Shown piece after piece: positions 11,024 through 29,253 of a DNA stretch of 64,000 nt. Each line of letters begins with the position of its first letter. Position 1 is the stretch's first letter. The translations under genes and the position numbers were made by a program. The notes beneath the pieces were generated by a model. It saw nothing but the letters and a program-made list of their open reading frames with translations, made no database searches and was not told where the DNA came from. The DNA lies in the NCBI RefSeq assembly GCF_054482595.1, contig NZ_CM137008.1. One strand, 5' to 3'.

Positions 11024-11028
11024 TACGA

Positions 11029-12177: not shown

Positions 12178-12191
12178 ATCAATTCCTTTTG

Positions 12192-13115
12192 TTACCAGCG
12201 CCCGGAAGCGCCACCGCCACCAGATGAACCGCCACCACCGCTAAAATTGTCATTGTCGAATGAAGAGGATGACGATGATGAATAGTGGGAGAAAGAATTG
12301 CTTCTTGTATGGCGTGATGGCTGGTTGGCATCACGCATCAAATCCCGAACTTTTTTGCCGAAGGGGGTAAAAGCGATGGCGACAGCCAGGAACGGTGTGG
12401 CGAAGCAGAGTAATGTTGTGAGTACTCCCCAGCTTCCGCTGAAACCTGCTATAGGTAAAACAAAGGCCAGTACAATAGCTGCGAAGCAAATTACTCCCAG
12501 CGTTTTGATATATCCTCTGGCAGAAATAAACGTCAGTACTATCGCCCAGGCTAACAAGGCCCACCAACCGCTAAAAGGTAAAGGGTGATCGGCCGGTGCT
12601 ATCGTCGCTAAATTATTCCCTGCCAAACGGTTTTCAATATCGCTGAGTCCCTTTTGCAAGCCGCCAGCAAGATCACCATTTTTAAATGCCGGAATAATAC
12701 TGTTGCGAATAATTTGCCCGGACTGCGCATCCGTAATAATACCTTCCAGTCCGTAACCGATTTCAATACGCACGGTATGATCCTGCCAGGCGACTAACAG
12801 TAGAACGCCATCATCGCTGTCTTTATCACCCGGTTTCCAGCTATCGAATACCCGCGTTGCGTACTGCTCGATGGTTTCATCGCCTGTTGTATCAACCACT
12901 AACACGACCAACTGTGCGTGGTTTTTTTGCGTCAGGGCTTTAATCTGGTTGGTCAGGGTGTTTACTTCGCTGTTTGTTAATGTGCCGGTTAAGTCATTCA
13001 CATACTTGGGGGATTCAGGTACTGGAATTTGTGTGGCAAACACAGATGAACAGAAGAAAGCCATAAGGAAGATAAAATTTCGCACAGAACTTCCCCGCTT
13101 AATGAGCATTAGCAT
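12192..13115 (-). CDS. TPM-domain membrane protein, paralog 3
   Basis: 307 aa ORF; TPM core GVLLLVAWQDHTVRIEIGYGLEG; TM helices; tail SGGGGSSGGGGASGRW; start ATG at 13115 or 13109, overlapping the lemA 3' end. Confidence 0.75.
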   Translation of the reverse strand: MLMLIKRGSSVRNFIFLMAFFCSSVFATQIPVPESPKYVNDLTGTLTNSEVNTLTNQIKALTQKNHAQLVVLVVDTTGDETIEQYATRVFDSWKPGDKDSDDGVLLLVAWQDHTVRIEIGYGLEGIITDAQSGQIIRNSIIPAFKNGDLAGGLQKGLSDIENRLAGNNLATIAPADHPLPFSGWWALLAWAIVLTFISARGYIKTLGVICFAAIVLAFVLPIAGFSGSWGVLTTLLCFATPFLAVAIAFTPFGKKVRDLMRDANQPSRHTRSNSFSHYSSSSSSSFDNDNFSGGGGSSGGGGASGRW

Positions 13116-13701
13116 TCTGGCTAAAATCTATTGTTGGGGCTTTACTTACTGCGGCGACATCATCCGGTAAATAATTTTTCTTTGGCGTGTAATCCATGAC
13201 CTTTGCGGTTAATACAGCGGGGAATTTGCGGATAGTGACATTATATTGTTCAATGGCTTTAATATATCTTCCTCGCGCAACGGCAATTCTATTTTCACTT
13301 CCTTCGAGCTGTACCATTAAGTTTTGATAGAGTTCCTGAGATTTTAACTCAGGGTAACGCTCACTAATTATCGTTAACTGACCGAGAGTGCGAGTCACCT
13401 GCGCTTGAGCCTGTTGCCAGGCTTGTAATTTTTGTTCATCTCCCGGAGTTTGCTGAAGATCGCTACTGGCGCGATTAGCCTGGCTACGAGCCAATGTTAC
13501 GGCTTCCAGTACATCTCGTTCATGGCTGGAATAACCTTTAATGCTGGCGACAAGATTAGGAATAAGATCGGCGCGACGTTGATATTGATTCAATACCTCA
13601 GACCAGGAGGCGTTAACCTGCTCATCATAGGTTTGAATATCGTTATATCCACAGCCTGATAAATTGAAAATAAATATAATTACGATGAATATTCTGAGCA
13701 T
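13099..13701 (-). CDS. LemA-family protein, probable lipoprotein
   Basis: 200 aa ORF MLRIFIVIIFIFNLSGC with lipobox LSGC; LemA-like helical region; first gene of lemA-TPM-TPM-TPM operon. Confidence 0.75.
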   Translation of the reverse strand: MLRIFIVIIFIFNLSGCGYNDIQTYDEQVNASWSEVLNQYQRRADLIPNLVASIKGYSSHERDVLEAVTLARSQANRASSDLQQTPGDEQKLQAWQQAQAQVTRTLGQLTIISERYPELKSQELYQNLMVQLEGSENRIAVARGRYIKAIEQYNVTIRKFPAVLTAKVMDYTPKKNYLPDDVAAVSKAPTIDFSQNANAH

Positions 13702-14883: not shown

Positions 14884-15339
14884 GAGTTCCCCGCGCCAGC
14901 GGGGATAAACCGGCCTGGCGATTTCTCGTCAGGCCTTGCGGTGTGAGTTCCCCGCGCCAGCGGGGATAAACCGTCAGTAAAGCGGCGCCCACTGATATCG
15001 GATTAGAGTTCCCCGCGCCAGCGGGGATAAACCGAGGGGCAGGGAGTGACGCTGGAGCAGGCGATCGAGTTCCCCGCGCCAGCGGGGATAAACCGGGAAA
15101 TTAGGCAAATGTGAACACGGCGGCCCCGAGTTCCCCGCGCCAGCGGGGATAAACCGCCAGTATTTTGTCGTGGATTGCGGGATCACCAGAGTTCCCCGCG
15201 CCAGCGGGGATAAACCGTTGAGTTTGTTCGTAACAACGCGGGTCATCTGGAGTTCCCCGCGGCAGCGGGGATAAACCGGGTACAAAAGAGGCCCCATTCT
15301 GGCAGGGCTCAAGTTCCCCGCGCCAGTGGGGATAAACCA
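14884..15339 (+). CRISPR. Type I-E CRISPR array A: 8 repeats, 7 spacers of 32 nt
   Basis: Repeat gagttccccgcgccagcggggataaaccg at 14884, 14945, 15006, 15067, 15128, 15189, 15250 (c13g variant), 15311 (degenerate terminal); exact 61-bp period. Confidence 0.97.
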
Positions 15340-15793
15340 CCATATAACCCGTTATCTCTTTCTCAAGTTTTTATATTAGCAGTACTCGTAATAAGCAACA
15401 TATCCACGTAACACCTCATGTTCAAAATAGTTCCCCATGCCAGATAAGTTCACAATTATCGATACAAAAAATCAAATTTAATCAAAGTGTTATTTGTATA
15501 ATCCTTAAACCGTTAAGAAATTTTAATGTATTATTTTTTTTAATATTAATTAATGCCTGTTAATTTTTTCTTTAGAATAACAGTGTGTTTTTTAAGCTTG
15601 TTATTCATTGATTAAGTAATAAATCTGGAAATTTGTCTTTGTTTTGAGGCTAATGAGTGGTTTTACATAACCGCCTCTATACGCTGTTGATGAATGGTTC
15701 TTATGAATAAAGATATCCAGTTCATACTTTAAGTGTAAATTGATAAAGTGCGATTCGTATTGTCTTTTATTCTAAAGACATCGAGTGTAGTTA

Positions 15794-15932
15794 ATATTCC
15801 TTGTAAAAACAGGGATAAACCGAACTAGTTAAAGTTTTTATTATGTTCCCTGCATCAGCGGGGATAAACCGGACTTGTTATCATTTTTTAAGTTGTCGAA
15901 CTTATGTTCCCCGCGTCAGCGGGGATAACCAT
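15794..15932 (+). CRISPR. Decayed CRISPR remnant (3 degenerate repeats)
   Basis: Degenerate repeats at about 15794, 15843 (atgttccctgcatcagcggggataaaccg) and 15904 (atgttccccgcgtcagcggggataaccat); spacers 20 and 32 nt. Confidence 0.7.
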
Positions 15933-15977
15933 TCAGGTATGTTCAGGCCGGGCTGTTTCCCGCCCGGCCTTCCTCAC

Positions 15978-17456
15978 TTACGCATTCGACCAGCTCTGGA
16001 TCGAATCCGCATTTCCCAATTCCCCATGCATCACTTCATACGATTTTTTCAGAATCACATCAGTATGTTTGGTTAGGTCTTTGAAAATGCCTTTATTCAT
16101 CGCGTCGTAGCGTTTGGCATTGCTCTCAATCGGTATAAAGATATCTTTCACGCGAACCATTTTATCGACAGCCGTTGCGTAATCCGGGTATAGCCCCAGA
16201 CCTACCGCTGTATTAATCGCTGCCCCCAGGCTTGCACAACCGTTAATGGCGTTACGTCGTGCCGGAAGGTTGAACACGTCGGCAAAAATCTGCATAAACA
16301 GATCGCTGTTCGAACCGCCGCCAGTAATGATTACATGCTTCGCAAAGTGATTCATTTCATTACACATATTGTCGTAATTGTTCTTCAGCGTCAGCGCCAC
16401 GCTTTCCAGTATCGAACGATATATCCATGCGTAATCCATGCTGGAATCAAAGCCGATCATAATCCCGCGTTTGTACGGTTCCCACGGATTGGTCAGCCAG
16501 TCCAGCACCGTCATCAGCCCATTACAGCCAGGTGGCACACTAGAGGCTTTCTTGTTGAGTAAATCTTCCGGTGAAAGATCCTGCGCCCTGGCATCCTGAA
16601 TTAACGACTCGCCTAACATGTCGCGCAGCCAGCTCACCGTCCACATGCCTTTGCGAATACCGTAACCTTCATACAGCAATGTTTGCGGAATAGAAGACAT
16701 AATCGGCCAGTACGCCACCGGATCTTTCGGCAAGGCTTTGCCGTTCATCATCAATGCGATGTAAGTGCCAAGAGAAATTACCGCAGTTTCATCATCCAGT
16801 AATCCGGCCCCCAGAGCTTCTACCGGTTTATCACTGGTGGTACAAACAACCGGCAGTCCTGCCGGGAAATGTGTCGCCAGTGCGGCTTGTGGTGTGATCT
16901 GTCCAAGGACGGTGCCAGGCATTTGCACATCAAACAGCATATGACGGGGGATATTAAACTTATCCATTACCGCAGCATCTTCACTCCATGCCCAGGTCTT
17001 ATAATCCACCGGCCACTGACCAAAATAGTTGGCGATATTGTCTTTAAACTCGCCGGTTAAGCGATGCGTCAGATAACCCGAAAAAGAGGTGACATAGGCC
17101 ACGTCAGGATTAGTGTGTTCGTAGGGACGCGTTACGCGTGCATCCTGCCAGCTAATCAATGGCGCAGCTGGCGTGCCATCGGCTTTCAATAACGCACGGC
17201 AGCAACGGATGGATCCCAGACCAATACCGACAATATCTTCTTTATTCCCGGCAAACTGACTCATCAAATCGTGACCGGCAAAACATAATGATGCCCATAA
17301 ATCGTCGTCAGGATGTTCTGCGGTATCGGCATCTGGCGTGTGCATCGGCTGCAATAAACCTTTGCCTTCGCAAACCACGTTACCTTCCAGATCGTACATC
17401 ACCACTTTTGTGCTCTGACTTCCGCCATCAATCCCTATGATGTATTTCTTCGACAT
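15978..17456 (-). CDS. ygcE: FGGY-family carbohydrate kinase YgcE
   Basis: 492 aa ORF MSKKYIIGIDGGSQSTKVVMYDLEGNVV. Confidence 0.9.
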   Translation of the reverse strand: MSKKYIIGIDGGSQSTKVVMYDLEGNVVCEGKGLLQPMHTPDADTAEHPDDDLWASLCFAGHDLMSQFAGNKEDIVGIGLGSIRCCRALLKADGTPAAPLISWQDARVTRPYEHTNPDVAYVTSFSGYLTHRLTGEFKDNIANYFGQWPVDYKTWAWSEDAAVMDKFNIPRHMLFDVQMPGTVLGQITPQAALATHFPAGLPVVCTTSDKPVEALGAGLLDDETAVISLGTYIALMMNGKALPKDPVAYWPIMSSIPQTLLYEGYGIRKGMWTVSWLRDMLGESLIQDARAQDLSPEDLLNKKASSVPPGCNGLMTVLDWLTNPWEPYKRGIMIGFDSSMDYAWIYRSILESVALTLKNNYDNMCNEMNHFAKHVIITGGGSNSDLFMQIFADVFNLPARRNAINGCASLGAAINTAVGLGLYPDYATAVDKMVRVKDIFIPIESNAKRYDAMNKGIFKDLTKHTDVILKKSYEVMHGELGNADSIQSWSNA

Positions 17457-17482
17457 GATTTTTCTCCTGTAATTTTCCTGGC

Positions 17483-18760
17483 TTACTTGCTGCTAGCCAT
17501 TGCGGGGGCGCTATCAGCAGTACGAATTTTTTGGAACAGCAAAAAGGTAAAGACAATCACCATGGCAAGCGCCGCCATGCCCATCAGCCACATATTGCGG
17601 TAGGCTTCTGCTGCGGGCAGGGTGTCTTGCCAGTGGCCGATAATTGGGTAAACGAAGACATCCGGCAGGAATCCAATCACCGAGCAAATACCTACCGTGG
17701 TGCCCATAATGTAAGACGGTGTTCTCGCTTCGCCAGGGCAGGCCCAGTACAGCCCGCGTGAGGCGTAACAGGTGAATCCCAGCAGTAAAATCAGGCCAAT
17801 CCCCATCGCGACCGATTGCGGGTTAGAGTTCGTGACGAGCAGGGCAGTTAACGCCAGCAGGCCGAGTACGGAAAGGATTTGGATCACGCGGGTAGGGGAT
17901 TTCACTTTGCTGTAGGTGGTGATTATGCCGCCAAGTGGGCCGCACAGCGCGCGGAAGATTTTGTTGATCACAATCCCCATGTAGCTCGCCGCCACCAGCG
18001 ACATGCCGTACATTTCGGTCAGATAGTTGGTGGAGTAACTCAGAATGGCGTAGATGGTGAAGACACCAAAAATCACCATGCTGCAATACCAGGTGGTACT
18101 GATACGCAAAACGGCCAGGATATCGCTAAGCTGGAATGACTGTTTTTCTTCGTTATTGGCACTGCGCAGGTTGTTGTTATCGCTAACAAAAAACCAGCAC
18201 AGAAGCCCCAACAAGATGTAAACCACACTGTAGATGATAATGACCGTTTTCAGGCTGGCGCTGTCATCCGGTGCAAAGCGAGAAAAGACCCACATGGTAA
18301 ACACCGCCAGCGACATTACACCGACGCCGCGCAGCCCTTCCATCCAGCCCATAATTTTCCCTTGCTCGCTATGATCGCCAAGCAACGATGCGGCTTTAAT
18401 CGACACCGACCACAGCATTAAAATCGTCGTTATCGCAAAGGCGACCTGAATACAGAGCATTACCCACAGCGGTGGATACGTTGCCATTAACAGACCCAGT
18501 AATCCGGTAATGATCATCGCGGAAGTAATCATTTTGCGATGTGAGAATTTATCAGCAATAACGCCGCTGGGGGCATAAAGAATAATAGCTGCAATACCAA
18601 AGGTACTCATTATTAAACCTATCTCGGTATTGCTGAATCCCATAAATTTCGCCATGGGAATTTGATAAATATAACGTAAATAAGCCAGGTCGAAACTAAC
18701 GCCGCCGCTAAAACTAATTATCGCGAGGGTTATCCAACGGCGATATGAGTTGTGTTGCAT
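17483..18760 (-). CDS. yqcE: MFS transporter YqcE
   Basis: 425 aa ORF, strongly hydrophobic, about 12 predicted TM helices; co-oriented upstream of ygcE. Confidence 0.88.
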   Translation of the reverse strand: MQHNSYRRWITLAIISFSGGVSFDLAYLRYIYQIPMAKFMGFSNTEIGLIMSTFGIAAIILYAPSGVIADKFSHRKMITSAMIITGLLGLLMATYPPLWVMLCIQVAFAITTILMLWSVSIKAASLLGDHSEQGKIMGWMEGLRGVGVMSLAVFTMWVFSRFAPDDSASLKTVIIIYSVVYILLGLLCWFFVSDNNNLRSANNEEKQSFQLSDILAVLRISTTWYCSMVIFGVFTIYAILSYSTNYLTEMYGMSLVAASYMGIVINKIFRALCGPLGGIITTYSKVKSPTRVIQILSVLGLLALTALLVTNSNPQSVAMGIGLILLLGFTCYASRGLYWACPGEARTPSYIMGTTVGICSVIGFLPDVFVYPIIGHWQDTLPAAEAYRNMWLMGMAALAMVIVFTFLLFQKIRTADSAPAMASSK

Positions 18761-19006
18761 ATCGTATTCCCATTTGTAATAGACAAAAAAAAGAGAAAAG
18801 TAAGCCGCCCTTTCAGGTGGATTACTTTTCTCAGGTCTCTAGTAATTGAAATAATAAATAACATGGAAAGCAGAGGTGTTGTGTGAGAGTAATCACGCTT
18901 CTGCTTTTTAAAACTATTTGATAATGCGAATATCACACTGTGATTACGATCACATTAGCAGTTATGCCCTTATGCTAAAAATTATCTCCAGTTACCAGAG
19001 ATAATG

Positions 19007-19054
19007 AGAAAGGTAACTTCCCTCTCGCGGGGGAAGTTACCTTTCTTTTTTTTT
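19007..19054 (+). terminator. Intrinsic terminator-like hairpin in ygcW 5' leader (candidate attenuator)
   Basis: 18-bp stem 19007-19024 / 19029-19046 (one G-U), 4-nt loop tcgc, then 8 T; ends 24 nt before ygcW ATG. Confidence 0.6.
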
Positions 19055-19078
19055 GCCTTACGGAAATTGGAGCTAACT

Positions 19079-19864
19079 ATGTCAATCGAATCTCTCAATG
19101 CGTTCTCAATGGATTTTTTCTCCCTGAAAGGTAAAACCGCAATTGTTACCGGCGGGAATAGCGGTTTAGGCCAGGCATTTGCCATGGCGTTGGCCAAAGC
19201 AGGCGCAAATGTCTTTATTCCTAGCTTCGTCAAAGATAACGGCGAAACAAAGGAAATGATTGAAAAACAGGGTGTTGAAGTTGATTTTATGCAGGTGGAT
19301 ATCACCGCAGAAGGCGCGCCGCAGAAGATTATCGCTGCTTGCTGTGAGCGTTTCGGAACAGTTGATATTCTGGTTAACAATGCCGGTATTTGTAAGCTGA
19401 ATAAGGTGCTGGACTTTGGTCGAGCCGACTGGGACCCGATGATTGATGTGAACCTGACCGCCGCATTCGAGTTAAGCTACGAAGCGGCAAAAATTATGAT
19501 CCCGCAGAAAAGCGGTAAAATTATTAATATCTGTTCATTGTTCTCTTACTTAGGTGGACAATGGTCACCTGCATATTCTGCCACTAAACATGCTCTTGCC
19601 GGATTCACCAAAGCTTATTGTGATGAACTAGGTCAATATAATATTCAGGTAAATGGTATCGCCCCTGGCTATTATGCAACAGATATTACGCTGGCGACAC
19701 GCAGTAATCCAGAAACCAATCAGCGCGTTCTTGATCATATTCCGGCAAACCGTTGGGGCGATACTCAGGATTTAATGGGCGCAGCCGTGTTTCTCGCAAG
19801 TCAGGCATCGAATTATGTCAACGGGCATTTATTAGTGGTCGATGGCGGTTATTTAGTGCGCTAA
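19079..19864 (+). CDS. ygcW: Short-chain dehydrogenase/reductase YgcW
   Basis: Start MSIESLNAF at 19079 with GGAG 8 nt upstream; TGGNSGLG Rossmann motif; ORF-track start 19004 is an in-frame upstream extension through the hairpin. Confidence 0.9.
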   Translation: MSIESLNAFSMDFFSLKGKTAIVTGGNSGLGQAFAMALAKAGANVFIPSFVKDNGETKEMIEKQGVEVDFMQVDITAEGAPQKIIAACCERFGTVDILVNNAGICKLNKVLDFGRADWDPMIDVNLTAAFELSYEAAKIMIPQKSGKIINICSLFSYLGGQWSPAYSATKHALAGFTKAYCDELGQYNIQVNGIAPGYYATDITLATRSNPETNQRVLDHIPANRWGDTQDLMGAAVFLASQASNYVNGHLLVVDGGYLVR

Positions 19865-19933
19865 CCCATAACGGTGGTTTCTGTTTTCTCTTATTAATGA
19901 TTATTCCATTTTTATTATCAGGAAGGAATTACT

Positions 19934-21388
19934 ATGTCTTTATCTCGCGCAGCGATTGTCGACCAGCTAAAGGAAATTGTTGGTGCAGATCGCGTAATTA
20001 CCGATGAAACAGTATTAAAGAAGAACAGTATTGACCGTTTTCGTAAATTTCCGGATATTCATGGCATTTATACTTTGCCGATTCCGGCAGCGGTCGTAAA
20101 ACTCGGTTCCACAGAACAAGTCTCCCGTGTGCTGAATTTTATGAATGCGCACAAAATTAACGGTGTGCCGCGTACCGGTGCTTCCGCCACCGAAGGTGGG
20201 CTGGAAACTGTTGTAGAAAACTCGGTGGTGCTCGACGGCTCCGCCATGAATCAAATCATTAATATTGATATTGAGAATATGCAGGCGACGGCGCAATGTG
20301 GCGTTCCCCTGGAAGTGCTGGAAAACGCGTTGCGTGAAAAAGGTTACACCACGGGGCATTCTCCGCAGTCAAAGCCGCTGGCGCAGATGGGCGGCCTGGT
20401 AGCAACCCGCAGTATCGGGCAGTTCTCCACACTCTACGGCGCAATCGAAGATATGGTCGTTGGTCTGGAAGCAGTATTGGCTGATGGCACCGTCACACGC
20501 ATTAAAAACGTGCCACGCCGCGCGGCTGGCCCGGACATTCGTCACATCATCATCGGCAACGAAGGTGCATTGTGCTATATCACTGAAGTAACAGTGAAAA
20601 TCTTTAAATTCACCCCGAAAAACAACCTCTTCTACGGCTATATCCTGGAAGACATGAAAACCGGCTTCAACATCCTGCGTGAAATCATGGTGGAAGGGTA
20701 TCGTCCGTCGATCGCTCGTTTGTATGACGCTGAAGATGGCACCCAACACTTCACCCATTTTGCCGACGGAAAATGTGTGCTGATCTTTATGGCTGAAGGT
20801 AACCCTCGCATTGCGAAGGCGACGGGCGAAGGGATTGCGGAAATCGTTGCCCGCTACCCGCAGTGCCAGCGCGTGGACAGCAAACTGATCGAAACCTGGT
20901 TTAACAACCTGAACTGGGGACCGGATAAAGTGGCTGCCGAACGTGTGCAAATCCTCAAAACCGGCAACATGGGCTTTACCACTGAAGTGTCCGGCTGCTG
21001 GAGCTGCATCCACGAAATCTACGAAAGCGTTATTAACCGTATTCGTATCGAGTTCCCGCACGCCGACGACATCACTATGCTGGGTGGTCACTCCTCTCAT
21101 AGCTATCAGAACGGCACCAACATGTACTTCGTCTACGACTACAACGTTGTCAACTGTAAGCCGGAAGAGGAAATCGACAAGTACCACAATCCGCTCAACA
21201 AAATCATCTGCGAAGAAACCATTCGCCTCGGCGGTTCGATGGTGCACCACCACGGCATTGGTAAACATCGCGTTCACTGGAGCAAGCTGGAACACGGCAG
21301 CGCGTGGGCGTTGCTGGAAGGGCTGAAAAAGCAATTCGATCCTAACGGCATTATGAATACGGGTACTATCTATCCGATTGAAAAATAA
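19934..21388 (+). CDS. ygcU: FAD-linked oxidase YgcU
   Basis: 484 aa ORF MSLSRAAIVDQLKEIVGADRVITDETVLKKNSIDRF. Confidence 0.9.
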   Translation: MSLSRAAIVDQLKEIVGADRVITDETVLKKNSIDRFRKFPDIHGIYTLPIPAAVVKLGSTEQVSRVLNFMNAHKINGVPRTGASATEGGLETVVENSVVLDGSAMNQIINIDIENMQATAQCGVPLEVLENALREKGYTTGHSPQSKPLAQMGGLVATRSIGQFSTLYGAIEDMVVGLEAVLADGTVTRIKNVPRRAAGPDIRHIIIGNEGALCYITEVTVKIFKFTPKNNLFYGYILEDMKTGFNILREIMVEGYRPSIARLYDAEDGTQHFTHFADGKCVLIFMAEGNPRIAKATGEGIAEIVARYPQCQRVDSKLIETWFNNLNWGPDKVAAERVQILKTGNMGFTTEVSGCWSCIHEIYESVINRIRIEFPHADDITMLGGHSSHSYQNGTNMYFVYDYNVVNCKPEEEIDKYHNPLNKIICEETIRLGGSMVHHHGIGKHRVHWSKLEHGSAWALLEGLKKQFDPNGIMNTGTIYPIEK

Positions 21389-21481
21389 TGTGTCAGGCAG
21401 CGTTCCGCGATGATGGGGCGTTGCCTTTTCGGCTTCTCAGGCGAGAAGCCGTTCTTATTACCGGACAATGAAGGGGTAAAG

Positions 21482-22819
21482 ATGAACACTTCACCGGTGC
21501 GAATGGATGATTTACCGCTTAACCGTTTTCACTGTCGAATTGCTGCGCTCACTTTCGGCGCACACCTGACCGACGGTTATGTTCTCGGCGTCATTGGTTA
21601 CGCCATTATTCAACTTACGCCCGCCATGCAACTGACGCCGTTTATGGCGGGAATGATCGGCGGCTCGGCGCTCCTTGGTTTGTTTCTTGGCAGCCTGGTT
21701 CTTGGGTGGATCTCCGACCATATTGGTCGGCAAAAAATCTTCACCTTCAGCTTTTTGCTGATTACGCTCGCTTCGTTCCTGCAATTTTTTGCCACCACGC
21801 CAGAGCATCTTATTGGACTGCGCATTTTGATCGGCATTGGTCTGGGAGGCGATTACTCAGTAGGTCACACCTTGCTGGCTGAATTTTCCCCGCGCCGCCA
21901 TCGCGGTGTTTTGCTGGGCGCATTCAGCGTGGTGTGGACCGTAGGCTATGTGTTAGCAAGTATTGCCGGACATCACTTTATTAGCGAAAGCCCGGAGGCC
22001 TGGCGCTGGCTGCTGGCATCGGCAGCTATGCCCGCGTTGTTGATTACGTTATTACGCTGGGGAACGCCAGAATCGCCACGCTGGCTACTGCGCCAGGGGC
22101 GTTTTGCAGAAGCTCACGCTATCGTGCATCGCTATTTTGGTCCCCATGTTTTACTGGGCGATGAAGTGGCAACGGCGACCCATAAACACATCAAAACCTT
22201 GTTCTCTTCGCGCTACTGGCGGCGCACGGCGTTTAACAGCGTCTTCTTTGTCTGCCTCGTAATCCCATGGTTTGTGATTTATACCTGGCTGCCAACTATC
22301 GCCCAGACTATTGGTCTAGAAGATGCGCTGACTGCCAGCCTGATGCTTAATGCGTTGTTAATTGTGGGCGCGCTGCTGGGATTAGTTCTGACGCACCTGC
22401 TGGCACATCGCAAATTTTTGCTGGGAAGTTTTTTGCTGCTGGCGGCAACGCTGGTAGTAGTGGCCTGTTTGCCTTCCGGCAGTTCATTAACGCTGCTGCT
22501 TTTTGTTCTCTTCAGCACCACCATTTCGGCAGTCAGTAATCTGGTGGGCATTTTGCCTGCGGAAAGTTTTCCTACTGACATTCGCTCGCTGGGCGTCGGT
22601 TTTGCCACCGCCATGAGCCGGTTGGGCGCGGCGGTAAGTACTGGCCTGCTGCCGTGGGTGCTGGCGCAGTGGGGAATGCAAGTTACCTTATTGATCCTGG
22701 CGGCAGTGTTGTTGGTTGGTTTTGTTGTGACCTGGCTATGGGCACCAGAAACCAAAGCACTCCCGCTGGTGGCGGCGGGAAATGTAGGAGGTGCGAATGA
22801 ACATTCTGTTAGCGTTTAA
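21482..22819 (+). CDS. ygcS: MFS sugar-type transporter YgcS
   Basis: Start MNTSPVRMDDLPLNRF inside ORF 21410..22819; sugar-transporter-like PESPRWL motif. Confidence 0.88.
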   Translation: MNTSPVRMDDLPLNRFHCRIAALTFGAHLTDGYVLGVIGYAIIQLTPAMQLTPFMAGMIGGSALLGLFLGSLVLGWISDHIGRQKIFTFSFLLITLASFLQFFATTPEHLIGLRILIGIGLGGDYSVGHTLLAEFSPRRHRGVLLGAFSVVWTVGYVLASIAGHHFISESPEAWRWLLASAAMPALLITLLRWGTPESPRWLLRQGRFAEAHAIVHRYFGPHVLLGDEVATATHKHIKTLFSSRYWRRTAFNSVFFVCLVIPWFVIYTWLPTIAQTIGLEDALTASLMLNALLIVGALLGLVLTHLLAHRKFLLGSFLLLAATLVVVACLPSGSSLTLLLFVLFSTTISAVSNLVGILPAESFPTDIRSLGVGFATAMSRLGAAVSTGLLPWVLAQWGMQVTLLILAAVLLVGFVVTWLWAPETKALPLVAAGNVGGANEHSVSV

Positions 22820-23576
22820 AGCCGAACCGGATGCCGGAATGCTGGCGGAAAAAGAGTGGCAGGCGGCGGCTCAGGGTAATAGCGGACCGGATGTTTCGCT
22901 ACTGCGAAGTTTACTCGGTGCTGATGAACAGGCTGCCGCCGCGCTGCTGTTGGCGCAGAGAAAAAACGGTACGCCGATGTCTTTAACCGCGTTGAGCATG
23001 GGGGATGAACGGGCGTTACACTGGCTGCGCTATCTCATGGCTCTTGGGTTTGAGGAAGCTGTATTGCTGGAGACGGCGGCAGATCTGCGCTTTGCGTCGG
23101 AATTTGTCGCTCGCCATATTGCCGAATGGCAGCGTCAGAATCCGCTGGATCTGATAATTACCGGCTGCCAAAGCAGCGAAGGGCAGAATGGGCAAACGCC
23201 ATTTTTGCTGGCGGAAACGCTGGGCTGGCCCTGCTTCACCCAGGTGGAGCGTTTCACTCTCGACGCGCTGTTTATCACCCTCGAACAGCGTACTGAACAT
23301 GGGCTGCGCTGTTGCCGGGTTCGCTTGCCTGCGGTGATTGCCGTGCGCCAGTGCGGTGAAGTGGCCTTGCCAGTACCGGGAATGCGCCAGCGAATGGCTG
23401 CGGGGAAAGCGGAAATTATCCGTAAAACTGTTGCTGCCGAATTGCCAGCGATGCAGTGTCTGCAACTGGCAAGAGCAGAGCAACGACGCGGAGCGACGCT
23501 GATTGATGGGCAAACGGTAGCAGAAAAAGCGCAAAAGCTATGGCAGGACTATTTACGCCAAAGGATGCAGCCATGA
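22797..23576 (+). CDS. ygcR: Electron-transfer-flavoprotein beta-like (FixA-like) YgcR
   Basis: ATG at 22797 (MNILLAFKAEPDAG); overlaps ygcS 3' end and ygcQ start. Confidence 0.85.
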   Translation: MNILLAFKAEPDAGMLAEKEWQAAAQGNSGPDVSLLRSLLGADEQAAAALLLAQRKNGTPMSLTALSMGDERALHWLRYLMALGFEEAVLLETAADLRFASEFVARHIAEWQRQNPLDLIITGCQSSEGQNGQTPFLLAETLGWPCFTQVERFTLDALFITLEQRTEHGLRCCRVRLPAVIAVRQCGEVALPVPGMRQRMAAGKAEIIRKTVAAELPAMQCLQLARAEQRRGATLIDGQTVAEKAQKLWQDYLRQRMQP

Positions 23577-24433
23577 ATATCGCAATTGTGACAATAAATC
23601 AGGAGAATGCCGCAATAGCAAGCTGGCTGGCGGCGCAGGATTTCAGCGGTTGTACCCTGGCGCACTGGCAGATTGAACCTCAGCCCGTAGTGGCGGAACA
23701 GGTGCTGGATGCGCTGGTGGAACAGTGGCAGCGAACGCCTGCGAACGTTGTTCTCTTTCCGCCGGGAACGTTTGGCGATGAACTGTCGACCCGGCTGGCC
23801 TGGCGTTTACATGGTGCAAGCATCTGCCAGGTGACTTCGTTAGAGATTCCAACCGTAAGCGTGCGCAAATCCCACTGGGGAAATGCGCTAACGGCGACGC
23901 TGCAAACAGAAAAACGCCCGCTATGCCTTTCCCTGGCGCGTCAGGCGGGAGCAGCGAAAAACGCCACGTTGCCCTCTGGAATGCAACAACTGAACATTGT
24001 CCCGGGTGCGCTTCCGGACTGGCTGGTTAGCATAGAGAACCTGAAAAATGTTACCCGCGACCCATTAGCTGAGGCCAGACGGGTGTTGGTGGTGGGGCAG
24101 GGCGGAGAGGCAGATAACCAGGAAATCGCTATGCTGGCAGAAAAGCTGGGAGCCGAAGTGGGCTACAGTCGGGCGCGAGTGATGAACGGTGGCGTTGATG
24201 CTGAAAAAGTGATTGGTATTTCCGGACATCTGCTGGCACCTGAGGTGTGTATTGTTGTTGGCGCTTCTGGCGCAGCAGCGTTAATGGCGGGCGTACGCAA
24301 TAGCAAGTTTGTGGTGGCGATTAATCATGACGCCAGCGCAGCGGTATTTTCACAGGCAGATGTTGGCGTGGTTGATGACTGGAAAGTGGTGCTGGAGGCA
24401 CTGGTGACAAACATTGACGCAGATTGCCAATAA
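23573..24433 (+). CDS. ygcQ: Electron-transfer-flavoprotein alpha-like (FixB-like) YgcQ
   Basis: ATG at 23573 (MNIAIVTINQENAAIASWL); C-terminal FAD-binding-like region. Confidence 0.85.
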   Translation: MNIAIVTINQENAAIASWLAAQDFSGCTLAHWQIEPQPVVAEQVLDALVEQWQRTPANVVLFPPGTFGDELSTRLAWRLHGASICQVTSLEIPTVSVRKSHWGNALTATLQTEKRPLCLSLARQAGAAKNATLPSGMQQLNIVPGALPDWLVSIENLKNVTRDPLAEARRVLVVGQGGEADNQEIAMLAEKLGAEVGYSRARVMNGGVDAEKVIGISGHLLAPEVCIVVGASGAAALMAGVRNSKFVVAINHDASAAVFSQADVGVVDDWKVVLEALVTNIDADCQ

Positions 24434-24439
24434 CGTGTT

Positions 24440-24545
24440 GCCGGATGATCCTGCCTACGGTTCTGGACTGGGGACCTGTAGGCCTGATAAGACGCGTTAA
24501 GCGTCGCATCAGGCGCTGAATGTCGGATGTGGCGTGCGGCCTACA
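24440..24545. repeat. REP/BIME palindromic units between convergent ygcQ and ygcP
   Basis: ggcctgataagacgcgttaagcgtcgcatcaggc plus gatgtggcgtgcggcctac; classic enterobacterial REP sequence. Confidence 0.8.
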
Positions 24546-24580
24546 AATCAAACCAAATTCAATTGGTTACGATTATCCCG

Positions 24581-25156
24581 TCAAAGCAATTTTTTCGCTA
24601 ACGTCCAGACTCCGGTATTCGTGGTGGAAAGCGCCACGACACCCGCGTTAATCGCATTACGCGCATCTTCTTCATCGCATACCAGCCCGCCAGCAATCAG
24701 CGGTTGGCGGATTTTTTCCGTCACCCAGCCCAGCACTTTGGGCATGCAGCCTGGCAGGATCTCAATACAATCCGGATTCGATTGCGCAACTTGCTTATCA
24801 ATGTTGTGAAACGAAATCGAATCAACAATAAACAGGCGATGAATACAGAAAAAACCTTCCGCTCTTGCCGCTTTCAACATTGAGGCTTTGGTACTGATAA
24901 TGCCGTCCGCCTCGGTCACCAGTTTCAAAAACTGAATCACGACTTCTTTATTTGACGCGCCTTCCAGCAAATCAACATGAATAAAAGCATATTTCCCGGC
25001 GTTCTTAATCTTTTTAACGATATTACTGATGGTGCAGATATTGCCGTACAACACGGAAATAAACTGGCATTCAGAGTCGATTGCCAGTTGTAGGCTGGCA
25101 TTATCTTTAACGGCAGCAATCACCGGATTCTGGCGGAGCAGGTGTAAGAGGGGCAT
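24581..25156 (-). CDS. ygcP: GlpP-family antiterminator-like protein YgcP
   Basis: 191 aa ORF MPLLHLLRQNPVIAAVKDNASLQLAIDSECQFISVLYGNI; GlpP-family assignment recalled from annotation, not derived here. Confidence 0.8.
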   Translation of the reverse strand: MPLLHLLRQNPVIAAVKDNASLQLAIDSECQFISVLYGNICTISNIVKKIKNAGKYAFIHVDLLEGASNKEVVIQFLKLVTEADGIISTKASMLKAARAEGFFCIHRLFIVDSISFHNIDKQVAQSNPDCIEILPGCMPKVLGWVTEKIRQPLIAGGLVCDEEDARNAINAGVVALSTTNTGVWTLAKKLL

Positions 25157-25172
25157 AAATTATCCTTATTAT

Positions 25173-25433
25173 TTATCCAAAACGGTAGGTGATGCCGAAT
25201 CCGGAAGGCGGATAGCGCCACTGTTGTAGTGTTGATTCGTCGCACAGCAAACGGCAGGTGCCACACTCCAGGCAACTGCGATAGTCAATACGTAAGTCAC
25301 CTTCCGGTGTGAGCGAAAAAAGACCTGCCGGACAGGCGTTAATCAACCGTTCTGCCGTCTGGCGCTCAACGGAGTCAGCCGGAACAATATGTGGCGCATC
25401 AGCAGCGCGCCAGAGATTACGGGCTACAGACAT
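25173..25433 (-). CDS. ygcO: Ferredoxin-like protein YgcO (FixX-like)
   Basis: Start MSVARNLWRAAD inside ORF 25173..25469; CxxCxxC motif (CLECGTCRLLC). Confidence 0.85.
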   Translation of the reverse strand: MSVARNLWRAADAPHIVPADSVERQTAERLINACPAGLFSLTPEGDLRIDYRSCLECGTCRLLCDESTLQQWRYPPSGFGITYRFG

Positions 25434-26695
25434 CGCAGACTCCTGATAACGTCGCCCGCCAGATGCCACAGGCCGTGACGACGTAAATGACGCCAGAATA
25501 ACTGGCGCAGCGGTGGAACAGGTTTATCACCCTGATCCCATAAATCGCGGGAAATATCCTGCATTAACGCAGGCCACGCCCAATACCAGCCAGGGCGTTG
25601 CAAAAGCGCCGGAACATGCTGATAACGCTGTAGAACATCCCACAGCAGGCTGCGCTCGACGTTGTGATGATAAAGCGGAAACAGATTTTGCGGCTCGCAG
25701 TGCTGGCAGGCGCTTATCAGCGTTTGTGCCGCCGCCTGTGCGCCAGTCAGCGCCATATCCATGCCGCGCACGGAGATTCCGGTATTGACGCAACTGCGTA
25801 ACGCATCGCCCACCAGCAGCCAGCCGTTACCGGCGTATTGCACTGGCATACTGTGCAAGCCACCTTCTGGCACCAGATGCGCACCATACTCCAGTGATTC
25901 CGTGTTTTTGATAAGCGGGCGCACTGCCGGATACGTTTTAAAGCGAGCCAGCAGCTCGCTTGCCGGAACACGACTTTGCGTAAGGGAAGAGAGCGGGCAA
26001 ACAATCCCTAACGAGAGCGTTTGTTGATTAGTATAAAGAAATGCGCCGCCGGGAAAGTCATCACAGATTCCGCCGCTGAACAGCAACGCTGCGCCTTCGT
26101 TATTCTCCAGATGAAAACGTTCTTCAATAGCGGATGTTTCCAGCGACAGCACTTCTTTGATCCCCAACGCCATCGCTTCGCCAGCAGGACGAGTCACTAA
26201 TCCGTGACGTTCAGCCAGGACGCTGTTGGCACCTTCTGCCAGCACCACATAACGGGCGCGGAGAATATCGTCACCACAAATGACACCACACACTCTGCCG
26301 TTTTCTTCATACAGTGCATCCACCGTCGCTCCGGGGATACATTCGACACCTTCTTTTTCGGCTTCGGCAACCAGCCACGGATCGAACCGTGCACGTAATA
26401 CACTCCAGGATTCACCGCCGGGCTGTAAGCTGGAAAACGTCGTTGCGCCATCCGGCGTTAACAGGGAAAGGCTTTCGTGAGTGATGCGTCGTTCAAGAGG
26501 CGCGGTCAGATGAAACTGAGGGAGGAGTTCCGCGAGTGCATGGGTATATAACCGCCCGCCGGAAAGATTTTTGCTGCCGGGGATTTCAGCGCGTTCCAGT
26601 AACAAAACGGATAAACCCGCTCGCGCGCAGCGTAACGCGCAAGCGGTGCCTGCAATACCGGCACCAATAATAATAATGTCGCAGTCGTCTTCCAT
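25424..26695 (-). CDS. ygcN: FAD-dependent oxidoreductase YgcN (FixC-like)
   Basis: Start MEDDCDIIIIGAGIAGTACA inside ORF 25424..26725; N-terminal FAD dinucleotide-binding motif. Confidence 0.87.
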   Translation of the reverse strand: MEDDCDIIIIGAGIAGTACALRCARAGLSVLLLERAEIPGSKNLSGGRLYTHALAELLPQFHLTAPLERRITHESLSLLTPDGATTFSSLQPGGESWSVLRARFDPWLVAEAEKEGVECIPGATVDALYEENGRVCGVICGDDILRARYVVLAEGANSVLAERHGLVTRPAGEAMALGIKEVLSLETSAIEERFHLENNEGAALLFSGGICDDFPGGAFLYTNQQTLSLGIVCPLSSLTQSRVPASELLARFKTYPAVRPLIKNTESLEYGAHLVPEGGLHSMPVQYAGNGWLLVGDALRSCVNTGISVRGMDMALTGAQAAAQTLISACQHCEPQNLFPLYHHNVERSLLWDVLQRYQHVPALLQRPGWYWAWPALMQDISRDLWDQGDKPVPPLRQLFWRHLRRHGLWHLAGDVIRSLRCL

Positions 26696-26772
26696 GTCAT
26701 GCCCCAGATATCCTGAACACAACACCCTAACATAGCGTTACTTAAGGGAAATTGACCGCCGACACACTCTTA

Positions 26773-27138
26773 TCATTCGCCGCGATAGATACAACCAGCG
26801 GTGCAGGTTTCTTTTACCATCACCGCACTTAACAGCGGCACAACGGGTTTAACCTGATCCCAAATCCATTTTGCTAAAACTTCGCTGGTCGGGTTTTCCA
26901 GACCTGGAATATCATTGAGATAATGGTGATCGAGGCGCTCATAAGTTGGCTTAAACGCCGCTTTCAGTTCAGCGAAATCGATAATCCAGCCCGTATGCGG
27001 ATCGACTTCCCCGGTAATTTCCAGTCGCACCATAAAGGAATGCCCGTGCAGGCGACCACATTTATGCCCTTCCGGGACGTGTGGTAAGCGGTGAGCGGCT
27101 TCGAAGGTGAAATCTTTAAATAACGTGGTGGACATCAT
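26773..27138 (-). CDS. queD: 6-carboxy-5,6,7,8-tetrahydropterin synthase QueD (YgcM)
   Basis: Start [33 protein letters not shown] inside ORF 26773..27222; 121 aa. Confidence 0.9.
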
Positions 27139-27222
27139 AATTTCTCTACAGGACGATAAAACCGCCGTAGAGTACCGGAAAGGCTGTTTTTTCGCATTAT
27201 CTAAAACGACTTTGTTGCGCAA

Positions 27223-27453
27223 AATCGCTGATTTATCTTAATGATTGGCTAAATTCATTTGTTTTTCATTAGGTTGGTTAATCTATTTTGTTGTTAAAGA
27301 CTATTGCTAAAACAGGTTAGTCGATTTGGTTATTAGTTATCGCTATCCCGTCTTTAATCCACACCGTTCACCCCGTTAACCTTACCTTCTCTTCTGTTTT
27401 ATGGGCGCTGACAGGGCGCAGAAACAGCTTTGCTTACTGGAACATAACGACGC
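27223..27453 (+). promoter_or_regulatory. cysJIH promoter region (CysB-activated in K-12)
   Basis: 231-bp AT-rich region between divergent queD and cysJ; regulation assigned from knowledge of cysJIH, no site mapped here. Confidence 0.45.
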
Positions 27454-29253
27454 ATGACGACACAGGTCCCACCTTCCGCGTTGCTTCCGTTGAACCCGGA
27501 GCAACTGGCACGCCTTCAGGCGGCCACGACCGATTTAACTCCCACCCAGCTTGCCTGGGTTTCTGGCTATTTCTGGGGCGTGCTCAATCAGCAGCCTGCT
27601 GCGCTTGCAGCGACGCCAGCGCCAGCCGCAGAAATGCCGGGTATAACTATTATCTCTGCTTCGCAAACCGGCAATGCGCGCCGGGTTGCTGAAGCATTAC
27701 GCGATGATTTATTAGCAGAAAAACTGAACGTTAAGCTGGTGAACGCGGGCGACTATAAATTCAAACAAATCGCCAGCGAAAAACTGCTCATCGTAGTGAC
27801 GTCAACGCAAGGGGAAGGGGAACCGCCGGAAGAAGCCGTCGCGCTGCATAAGTTCCTGTTCTCCAAAAAAGCGCCGAAGCTGGAAAATACCGCTTTTGCC
27901 GTGTTTAGCCTCGGCGATAGTTCTTATGAATTTTTCTGCCAGTCCGGGAAAGATTTCGACAGCAAGCTGGCGGAACTGGGCGGTGAACGCCTGCTCGACC
28001 GTGTCGACGCCGACGTTGAATACCAGGCTGCTGCCAGCGAGTGGCGCGCCCGCGTGGTTGATGCGCTTAAATCGCGTGCGCCTGTCGCGGCACCTTCGCA
28101 ATCCGTCGCTACTGGCGCGGTAAATGAAATCCACACCAGCCCGTACAGCAAAGACGCGCCGCTGGTGGCTAGCCTCTCTGTTAACCAGAAAATTACCGGG
28201 CGTAACTCTGAAAAAGACGTTCGCCATATCGAAATTGACTTAGGTGACTCGGGCCTGCGCTATCAGCCGGGCGACGCGCTGGGCGTGTGGTATCAGAACG
28301 ATCCGGCACTGGTGAAAGAACTTGTCGAACTGCTGTGGCTGAAAGGCGATGAAACTGTCACCGTTGACGGCAAAACGCTGACCCTGCGCGAAGCGCTACA
28401 GTGGCACTTCGAACTGACGGTTAACACCGCCAATATCGTTGAGAACTATGCCACGCTTACCCGCAGTGAAACGCTGCTGCCGCTGGTGGGCGATAAAGCG
28501 AAGTTGCAGCATTACGCCGCGACCACGCCGATTGTCGATATGGTGCGTTTCTCTCCGGCACAGCTTGATGCTGAAGCGCTGATTAACCTGCTGCGCCCGC
28601 TGACGCCGCGCCTCTATTCCATCGCCTCATCGCAGGCTGAAGTGGAAAGTGAAGTGCACGTCACCGTTGGTGTCGTTCGTTATGACATTGAAGGCCGCGC
28701 CCGTGCGGGTGGTGCCTCCAGCTTCCTCGCGGACCGCGTGGAAGAAGAGGGTGAAGTCCGCGTCTTTATCGAACATAACGATAACTTCCGCCTGCCCGCT
28801 AACCCGGAAACCCCGGTGATTATGATTGGCCCAGGCACCGGTATCGCGCCGTTCCGCGCCTTTATGCAGCAACGTGCTGCCGATGAAGCACCGGGTAAAA
28901 ACTGGCTGTTCTTTGGCAACCCGCATTTTACGGAAGATTTCCTCTACCAGGTGGAGTGGCAGCGCTACGTCAAAGAGGGTGTGCTGACGCGGATCGATCT
29001 CGCCTGGTCGCGCGATCAAAAAGAAAAAGTTTACGTACAAGACAAACTGCGCGAACAGGGCGCGGAGCTGTGGCGCTGGATCAATGACGGTGCCCACATT
29101 TATGTCTGCGGCGACGCTAATCGCATGGCGAAAGACGTTGAGCAGGCACTTCTGGAAGTGATTGCCGAATTTGGTGGCATGGACACCGAAGCGGCGGATG
29201 AATTTTTAAGTGAGCTGCGCGTAGAGCGCCGTTATCAGCGAGATGTCTACTAA
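27454..29253 (+). CDS. cysJ: Sulfite reductase flavoprotein alpha subunit
   Basis: 599 aa [33 protein letters not shown]. Confidence 0.95.

Follow-up and report, generated by a model that had tools for sequence, protein, structure and literature searches.

In the ether-lipid route, an alkylglycerol kinase and an alkyl-dihydroxyacetone phosphate (alkyl-DHAP) reductase of the short-chain dehydrogenase/reductase (SDR) family are found together with AGPS (EC 2.5.1.26), which converts acyl-DHAP and a fatty alcohol to alkyl-DHAP in a redox-neutral reaction. The related flavoenzymes GlcD, LctD, LDHD and D2HGDH use an electron-transfer flavoprotein (ETF) as acceptor, and in the carnitine metabolism of Escherichia coli FixABCX probably supplies a reductase with electrons. 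In Bacillus subtilis, GlpP together with glycerol-3-phosphate relieves terminators in the glpD, glpFK and glpTQ leaders (PMC9604022). We describe here the ygc genes of E. coli, which lie at positions 15978–26695 of a 64,000-nucleotide stretch of contig NZ_CM137008.1 (that whole stretch is called the window below), share features with each of these systems and are among the larger blocks of E. coli core-genome genes to which no function is assigned. Full-text searches of the open literature turned up no substrate for the cluster, in agreement with the first-pass annotation of this DNA, which knew of no assigned substrate.

The regulatory part of our reading is well supported: CRP-dependent initiation, default termination in two leader RNAs, and the proposed relief of that termination through the GlpP-like protein YgcP. 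For the pathway as a whole, the best explanation that we can offer, with a probability of roughly 0.4, is an inducible catabolic island in which three enzymes and an electron-transfer chain would bring about an AGPS-like cleavage of a glycerol-type conjugate.

Like the GlpP system of B. subtilis, the ygc locus combines a PF04309 protein with terminators in 5′ leaders and with catabolite control on top, and its likely effector is the phosphorylated product of the pathway's own kinase; unlike that system, it resides in a Gram-negative host, serves another pathway and uses CRP rather than CcpA. The ygc leader family, which extends from E. coli to Firmicutes and Actinomycetes, may be previously undescribed: it is absent from Rfam. 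YgcE, YgcW and YgcU mirror the kinase, the reductase and AGPS of the ether-lipid route run backwards, and YgcU shares with AGPS, its nearest relative in sequence and fold, the catalytic Arg, Tyr and HHH loop. It differs from AGPS in being soluble, bacterial, catabolic by context, flanked by ETF genes and without the N-terminal part, and its substrate is presumably small and polar, given BCCT or MFS uptake, rather than a long-chain lipid. The placement of an FAD_binding_4/FAD-oxidase_C gene beside ETF beta and alpha genes, with an ETF:quinone oxidoreductase downstream, recalls Acetobacterium woodii LctBCD and the LDHD/D2HGDH enzymes, but YgcU does not have the Glu-His motif of LctD-type dehydrogenases. 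After caiTABCDE-fixABCX and ydiQRST, the ygc genes form a third paralogous FixABCX-like set in E. coli, and the ygc systems of other phyla are tied, as CaiT is, to BCCT carriers and quaternary amines. In contrast to cai/fix, the ETF genes are here split between two convergent units (ygcRQ and ygcNO), genes for a CoA-transferase and an acyl-CoA dehydrogenase are missing, and the ETF genes have a kinase, an SDR and an AGPS-like flavoenzyme as partners.

Promoters and leader RNAs of the divergent operons

A 318-bp intergenic region (18761–19078) separates the divergent yqcE-ygcE and ygcWUSRQ operons, and each operon begins with a CRP site and, behind it, the shared ~67-nt leader. The site ahead of ygcW, TGTGATTACGATCACA, is occupied by CRP in vivo, as seen from a chromatin immunoprecipitation (ChIP) peak in enterotoxigenic E. 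coli (PMC4287617), and binds CRP in vitro with a Kd of 1.7 nM (PMC12871828); it was also predicted by PhyloScan (PMC1794230), and yqcE-ygcE has been reported to be CRP-activated (PMC8085971). The second, CRP-like site, TGTGAgagtaaTCACG, lies ahead of yqcE. The arrangement suggests two back-to-back class II CRP promoters, with start sites deduced from the CRP spacing. The same intergenic region is marked as an H-NS site in a table from genomic systematic evolution of ligands by exponential enrichment (PMC3946193), and H-NS silencing could, besides the strong terminators, help to keep the cluster off in laboratory conditions.

In each leader the 3′ arm of the terminator is partly copied upstream (AGUUACC for ygcW and AUUACU for yqcE), and the copy is able to pair with the 5′ arm instead, so that the two hairpins would be mutually exclusive. 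The U9 run of the ygcW terminator ends at 19054, which is 25 nt ahead of the ygcW ATG, and this leader folds at −41.8 kcal/mol (z −5.6). Both leader stems begin with GAGAAARGUAAY, and within the window the enrichment of that motif is confined to them. When the window was scanned with a covariance model (R1), the only full-length matches were the two leaders, each of them directly 5′ of an operon. In an alignment of 36 leader sequences (A3), 96% of the cells of the antiterminator helix are paired and six of its seven pairs show compensatory changes; none of 500 shuffles did as well, and slid controls scored far lower. In the longer terminator helix, 84.5% of the cells are paired and 11 of the 19 pairs show compensatory changes. 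Leaders truncated to their nascent form (from E. coli, Halobacillus and Sporomusa) fold into a weak antiterminator hairpin, of −3 to −7 kcal/mol in most, as would be expected if a protein must stabilise it; its loop of 14–17 nt bears a conserved AGAG...GAGAAA. A scan of 15300–27500 with Rfam (E ≤ 1) returned nothing at the leaders and a single, naRNA4-like match at 24481–24554.

Leaders built in this way stand ahead of ygcW orthologues in Enterobacterales, Photobacterium, Halobacillus, Thalassobacillus, Virgibacillus, Geosporobacter, Dethiosulfatibacter, Sporomusa, Saccharopolyspora, Prauserella and several metagenome-assembled genomes (MAGs) of Bacillota. Some Clostridia and Geosporobacter have the leader a second time within the operon, directly before ygcU (L063, 9848–9911; L067, 9826–9912; L069, 8713–8797), and the flavoenzyme would there be gated separately from the SDR and the kinase.

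YgcP and the leaders as one probable regulatory device

YgcP belongs to the family of GlpP (table below) and matches the Listeria GlpP structure (3KTS) at E 1e-27. We searched 80 loci for counterparts of the ten E. coli proteins and tallied leader and YgcP in those with enough flanking sequence: both were present at 35 loci and neither at 5, the leader occurred alone at one locus and YgcP alone at none (Fisher p 8e-6, ignoring kinship among the loci). From this co-occurrence we conclude that YgcP and the leader are probably parts of one regulatory device. The clusters of Desulfobacterales, SAR324 and Alkalihalobacillus have neither, and LysR or sigma-54 regulators are found there instead. The single leader-only locus, in Serratia microhaemolytica (L033), has both leaders and no YgcP homologue within 10 kb; its regulator may be encoded elsewhere or have been lost.

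We propose that the CRP-dependent promoters drive yqcE-ygcE and ygcW-U-S-R-Q and that, in the default state, each leader would form its very stable intrinsic terminator. YgcP, in complex with a phosphorylated intermediate of the pathway, would stabilise the weak upstream hairpin, which would then sequester the 5′ arm of the terminator and permit read-through. That the effector is glycerol-3-phosphate itself is unlikely.

Coordinates of the ygc genes, CRP sites and leader elements in the window
Feature	Position	Strand	Description and evidence
ygcE	15978–17456	-	FGGY-family kinase, 492 aa; FGGY_N and FGGY_C domains
yqcE	17483–18760	-	MFS_1 transporter, 425 aa
ygcW	19079–19864	+	SDR dehydrogenase, adh_short domain; close to KduD and gluconate 5-dehydrogenase
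ygcU	19934–21388	+	FAD_binding_4 and FAD-oxidase_C domains; alkyl-DHAP-synthase type, 484 aa
ygcS	21410–22819	+	Sugar_tr/MFS_1; MFS transporter of sugar-porter/organic-ion type
ygcR	22797–23576	+	ETF domain; ETF beta subunit, FixA-like
ygcQ	23573–24433	+	ETF and ETF_alpha domains; ETF alpha subunit, FixB-like
ygcP	24581–25156	-	G3P_antiterm (PF04309), 210.6 bits (cut-off 27); GlpP-family antiterminator protein
ygcO	25173–25433	-	FixX-like ferredoxin; NCBIfam FixX model 81.9 bits, under cut-off
ygcN	25424–26695	-	FixC-like ETF:quinone oxidoreductase; FixC-like matches of 374 and 358 bits
CRP-like site TGTGAgagtaaTCACG	18882–18897		Centre 18889.5, ~41.5 nt upstream of yqcE leader start; sequence only
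CRP site TGTGATTACGATCACA	18939–18954		Centre 18946.5, ~41.5 nt upstream of ygcW leader start; sequence, ChIP, in vitro binding
yqcE leader RNA	18785–18851	-	R1 71.3 bits, E 2e-12; member of alignment A3
yqcE leader, antiterminator arms	18846–18841, 18826–18821	-	
yqcE leader, terminator	hairpin ~18832–18793; U8 run 18792–18785	-	Fold z −3.8
ygcW leader RNA	18986–19054	+	R1 73.1 bits, E 8e-13; terminator scan, fold, covariation
ygcW leader, antiterminator arms	18990–18996, 19012–19018	+	AGUUACC and GGUAACU
ygcW leader, terminator arms	19006–19024, 19029–19047	+	19 bp, GC-rich

The active site of YgcU

The closest solved structures to YgcU are those of AGPS (E 1.2e-39, the best match outside AGPS being at 5.6e-26), with glycolate oxidase, LctD, LDHD and D2HGDH behind them (E 1e-26 to 1e-16). 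We identified the catalytic positions of AGPS through the mutant entries R419H and Y578F of the PDB. In HMMER alignments, Arg262 of YgcU falls on AGPS Arg419, Tyr398 on Tyr578, and His438–440 on His615–617, and these YgcU residues are invariant in 14 sequences from several phyla (alignment A1). YgcU reads HHHG at the position of the EHG motif of LctD-like paralogues, and an AGPS-like Tyr takes the place of the second metal-binding His; the His/His/Glu metal site of the D-2-hydroxyacid dehydrogenases (GlcD, LDHD, D2HGDH and LctD) is missing. Judged from these residues, YgcU is an enzyme whose active site would work as that of AGPS does, although the protein lies outside AGPS proper. Its setting in a catabolic operon, beside transporters for polar solutes and next to an ETF, argues for a reaction different from the conversion of acyl-DHAP and fatty alcohol to alkyl-DHAP. 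The AlphaFold model of YgcU is of moderate quality (pLDDT 71).

YgcU is conserved, with relatives in distant phyla at 63–75% identity. Many clusters of anaerobes contain a second FAD-linked oxidase that is LctD-like, with GH..H and EHG motifs, and E. coli has no such gene; some of these clusters also have a second ETF with a ferredoxin domain. Two assemblies carry unexpectedly similar copies: a contig attributed to a Planctomycetota MAG (L005), with ygcU at 99% identity to E. coli, and a contig of Chryseobacterium sp. 18061 (L028), with ygcU at 88% and the full enterobacterial gene order. These most likely reflect contamination or mis-binning of public assemblies rather than gene transfer.

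In the literature, a 2026 paper calls ygcU only an ‘FAD-binding oxidoreductase’ and reports that its deletion left D-serine responses unaffected; a role as D-serine deaminase was tested there with a negative outcome (PMC13012123).

The conserved core and its kinase and dehydrogenase

YgcW, YgcU and YgcE are present in every complete locus, across at least six phyla, and usually together with YgcP; this core is kept in Firmicutes, Actinomycetes, Desulfobacterales and SAR324. YgcW orthologues are 64–82% identical across phyla, while YgcE orthologues are 43–58% identical outside Enterobacterales and accompany YgcW and YgcU in all phyla sampled. None of the ten ygc proteins reaches an NCBIfam equivalog cut-off, and the curated models therefore give no specific function. 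The best NCBIfam scores of YgcE are with XylB (144.6, cut-off 380) and LsrK (139.4, cut-off 528), and it likewise falls under the cut-offs for GlpK, GntK, AraB, FucK and RhaB; its closest solved structure is LsrK (E 1.5e-30). YgcW comes nearer to its models, with 350.7 against a cut-off of 369 for the KduD model PRK06935 and 277.7 against 338.9 for TIGR01832, and its closest solved structures are KduD and Gno. We take YgcW, on these scores, to be a close paralogue of the KduD and gluconate 5-dehydrogenase SDRs and not a member of either. KduD and gluconate 5-dehydrogenase oxidise a CHOH group that adjoins a terminal CH2OH.

YgcE was found in the open literature only as a stress-induced protein. 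Overexpression of YgcS raised the titre of nicotinamide mononucleotide (NMN), for which the authors suggest import of nicotinamide (PMC8601175); we regard the effect of YgcS on NMN production as indirect.

Transporters and neighbouring genes in other phyla

The MFS carriers YqcE and YgcS are those of Enterobacterales. One or two BCCT carriers are present in Firmicutes, Photobacterium and SAR324, and OpuA-type ABC systems in Syntrophomonadaceae, other Bacillota and Virgibacillus. Several genomes have the leader directly before a BCCT gene or before a gene for a YqcE-like MFS carrier, and it also precedes an operon that encodes an MttB-family methyltransferase, PanB, an OpuA-type ABC system and a proline-racemase-like protein. 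YqcE itself is 58% identical to the product of a Photobacterium MFS gene that adjoins the FGGY kinase behind a leader.

The neighbours in other genomes include an aspartase-like lyase (466 bits, cut-off 510), a betaine-aldehyde-dehydrogenase-like enzyme and a zinc-dependent alcohol dehydrogenase in Alkalihalobacillus (L002); an aspartase-like lyase, an MttB-like protein, an aldo-keto reductase and OpuAC in Desulfopila (L051); and an iron-dependent alcohol dehydrogenase and SurE in Dethiosulfatibacter (L064). An aldo-keto reductase, an aldehyde dehydrogenase and a Fae-like protein (formaldehyde-activating enzyme family) recur together in SAR324 (L050), Erwinia (L034) and Serratia (L046), and in the latter two they form one operon with the YgcS orthologue. 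We know of no tetrahydromethanopterin metabolism in Erwinia, Serratia or SAR324.

A link to quaternary ammonium compounds is established for BCCT carriers, OpuA systems and non-pyrrolysine MttB homologues. Because such transporters and MttB-like neighbours accompany the orthologous systems of other phyla, the compound handled there very probably carries a quaternary ammonium group of choline or homoserine-betaine type, as judged by analogy with those families. What is released is probably an alcohol, which would be further oxidised to an acid.

Electron-transfer proteins

The cluster contains a set of ETF beta, ETF alpha, FixC-like and FixX-like proteins, all of them scoring under the NCBIfam equivalog cut-offs. 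YgcN matches FixC of the T. maritima EtfABCX complex (7KOE) at E 1e-55, and the closest solved structures to YgcQ are human ETF-alpha and LctC. The resemblance of YgcN to FixC and to ETF:quinone oxidoreductases makes electron flow to quinone plausible. YgcRQ follows YgcU in most Enterobacterales and in anaerobes, and is missing from the clusters of aerobic Bacillaceae, of actinomycetes and of a variant found in Erwinia, Pantoea and some Serratia. Among the 80 loci, YgcNO was found only in Enterobacterales clusters. The ‘ygcO’ named in one paper (PMC13104625) is a misspelling of YcgO, a K+ exporter.

A proposed pathway and its alternatives

In the reading that we prefer, a substrate of the form X-CH2-CHOH-CH2OH, with a glycerol-like end and a terminal vicinal diol, would be imported by YqcE and/or YgcS. 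YgcE would phosphorylate the primary hydroxyl, and the glycerol-3-phosphate-like product would be the effector of YgcP; YgcW would then oxidise the adjacent secondary hydroxyl to give a 1-substituted dihydroxyacetone phosphate. YgcU would deprotonate C1, form a flavin adduct as AGPS does and expel X, leaving a C3 phosphate for glycolysis. Alternatively, YgcU might oxidise C1, after which hydration would free X and a 2-oxo-aldehyde phosphate. In the oxidative version, two electrons would pass from YgcU through YgcRQ and YgcNO to the quinone pool, which would explain the dedicated ETF in organisms without a housekeeping one.

In other phyla X is very probably a quaternary-ammonium alcohol; on its more exact nature we can only speculate. 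Glyceryl-trimethylhomoserine, the deacylated head group of the betaine lipid diacylglyceryl-trimethylhomoserine (DGTS), is the candidate that would account for most accessory genes: homoserine betaine might be converted to aspartate betaine by an alcohol and an aldehyde dehydrogenase, and the aspartase-like lyase might then yield fumarate and trimethylamine. Glycerophosphocholine and simple (dihydroxypropyl)ammonium compounds are other candidates, and E. coli may work on a different X. Taken in its most specific form, the proposal is that YgcU is a catabolic counterpart of AGPS that cuts the normally unreactive C1–O or C1–N bond of small glyceryl quaternary-amine conjugates, with glyceryl-trimethylhomoserine as the best fit and with a triose phosphate and a precursor of methylamine, or a betaine, set free as the products, under control of a new leader RNA switch; that all of this holds together is improbable. 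Several other substrates were set aside: plain glycerol or glycerol-3-phosphate (served by the canonical glp genes, and at odds with BCCT carriers), glycerophosphocholine (simple diesterases are available for it, although it stays among the candidates), 2,3-dihydroxypropane-1-sulfonate (DHPS; anionic, a misfit with BCCT) and carnitine (no terminal diol for an FGGY kinase).

A number of points weigh against the proposed pathway. YgcU is without the N-terminal ~190 residues of AGPS (484 aa against about 580–660 aa), and its alignments begin at AGPS residue ~138 (Dictyostelium) or ~193–215 (mammalian). It has invariant family-specific residues, His386 and His389, and an invariant GGHSSHSY segment. 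In a fold search AGPS comes out on top, with hardly any lead over D-lactate dehydrogenases (E 3e-25 vs 3e-23), and since it separates AGPS so weakly, our argument rests on motifs and not on the fold. AGPS is redox-neutral and has no need of an ETF, and the adjacent ETF genes fit only if the cleavage is oxidative or reductive. Kinase and SDR may act in another order, and both X and the reaction of YgcU are inferred. The quaternary-amine argument may not transfer to E. coli, which has MFS rather than BCCT carriers and is without methylamine-handling neighbours. On the regulatory side, the transcription starts of both operons are deduced from CRP spacing, and the binding of YgcP to the leader and its ligand are proposed from prediction. 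A leader, a motif or a separate promoter was also sought before ygcN, and none was found. The co-regulation on which the first-pass annotation had made its grouping depend holds for two of the three transcription units, each with a CRP site and the same leader; ygcN-O-P has no leader.

The most conventional alternative is an ordinary pathway for a sugar, polyol or sugar acid, with MFS uptake, oxidation by YgcW and by YgcU acting as an enzyme of GlcD or LDHD type, phosphorylation by YgcE, and transfer of the YgcU electrons through ETF to quinone, much as the first-pass annotation had it. The domain content fits, YgcU does match GlcD (139 bits), LctD, LDHD and D2HGDH, YqcE weakly resembles galactonate and phosphoglycerate carriers, and CRP control is typical of sugar catabolism. 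We nonetheless find it doubtful. The HHHG sequence of YgcU and its Tyr in place of the second metal-binding His are those of AGPS; the kinase, the SDR and the transporters reach no equivalog cut-off; BCCT and OpuA transporters under the same leader, with neighbours resembling MttB and betaine aldehyde dehydrogenase, misfit a neutral or acidic sugar; and the regulator is GlpP-like rather than a sugar-specific repressor. The earlier claim that an FAD-linked oxidase oxidises a sugar, polyol or sugar acid is therefore too generic and its chemistry probably wrong, given the AGPS catalytic residues of YgcU, its want of the Glu-His motif of 2-hydroxyacid dehydrogenases, and the use of betaine-, choline- or carnitine-type transporters beside methylamine-handling genes in the clusters of other phyla.

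The electron-transfer genes could also be read in the opposite sense, as an electron sink like carnitine respiration (CaiA with FixABCX), in which electrons from quinol or ferredoxin would pass through YgcNO and YgcRQ to YgcU for the reductive removal of a substituent, for example trimethylamine, from an alpha-substituted ketone made by YgcE and YgcW. YgcNOQR is paralogous to FixABCX, the link to quaternary amines parallels that of caiT (BCCT) with fixABCX, YgcU has dedicated ETF genes beside it in facultative and strict anaerobes and not in aerobes, and the extra LctD-like dehydrogenase and second ETF of the anaerobes could supply electrons. We judge a sink of this kind to be unlikely all the same, as aerobic Bacillaceae, actinomycetes and Erwinia keep the core without a clustered ETF; there a strictly ETF-dependent reduction would have no donor, whereas an oxidation could use a housekeeping ETF or O2. 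Activation by CRP also suggests a carbon source and not an acceptor of electrons. An equally different idea starts from the kinase: among solved structures YgcE is closest to LsrK, which is also its second-best match in NCBIfam, and the cluster might serve a diketone or ketose signal related to autoinducer-2, with YgcE as an LsrK-like kinase and the other proteins disposing of the phosphorylated product. This we consider very improbable, because the LsrK score is far below its cut-off (139 bits against 528), homologues of LsrF, LsrG, LsrR and the ABC transporter are missing from the cluster, and the conserved partners are instead an SDR, an AGPS-like flavoenzyme and betaine-type transporters.

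The locus and its surroundings

Positions 15000–28000 of the window are 100% identical to several E. coli chromosomes, and at least 80% of this region is held by 5031 of 5426 complete E. coli genomes. Gene coordinates were taken from the RefSeq annotation of an identical record (L001; window coordinate = L001 coordinate + 8999) and have matching open reading frames (ORFs) in the ORF list. The limits 15978–26695 coincide with the outer ends of ygcE and ygcN and enclose ten genes. The gene content and coordinates set down in the first-pass annotation agree with RefSeq and the ORF list, and every domain that it named was recovered with Pfam and NCBIfam.

By RefSeq annotation, the cluster is flanked by queE and a CRISPR array on one side and by queD and cysJIH on the other. 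The repeat array (14884–15339) adjoins ygcE, and cas3 starts near 32131, past cysJIH; we take these surroundings to be the usual type I-E CRISPR/cas neighbourhood of the ygc genes in E. coli. The convergent gap between ygcQ and ygcP holds a palindromic element of REP/BIME type at the position of the Rfam match mentioned above (naRNA4, 32.8 bits against a cut-off of 59.5). Upstream of queE, at 10130–13701, are genes for three TPM-domain proteins and one LemA-family protein that are annotated without a specific function.

Implications

What had been an ‘unknown sugar cluster’ can now be described more sharply as a regulon controlled by GlpP-type leaders and probably devoted to an AGPS-like cleavage, with a concrete RNA switch, catalytic residues and classes of substrate attached to it. 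Together, the leader and YgcP would make up an antitermination switch that is portable, under the control of a ligand and functional in E. coli. An AGPS-like cleavage, if true, would be new enzymology for this flavoenzyme family, whose members are known only from the synthesis of ether lipids and the oxidation of 2-hydroxyacids. In marine, saline and gut habitats it would fill a gap in how betaine lipids or other glyceryl-quaternary amines are turned over, which might bear on the production of methylamine by microbes, and in gut Enterobacteriaceae it would amount to an unrecognised route acting on dietary quaternary amines.

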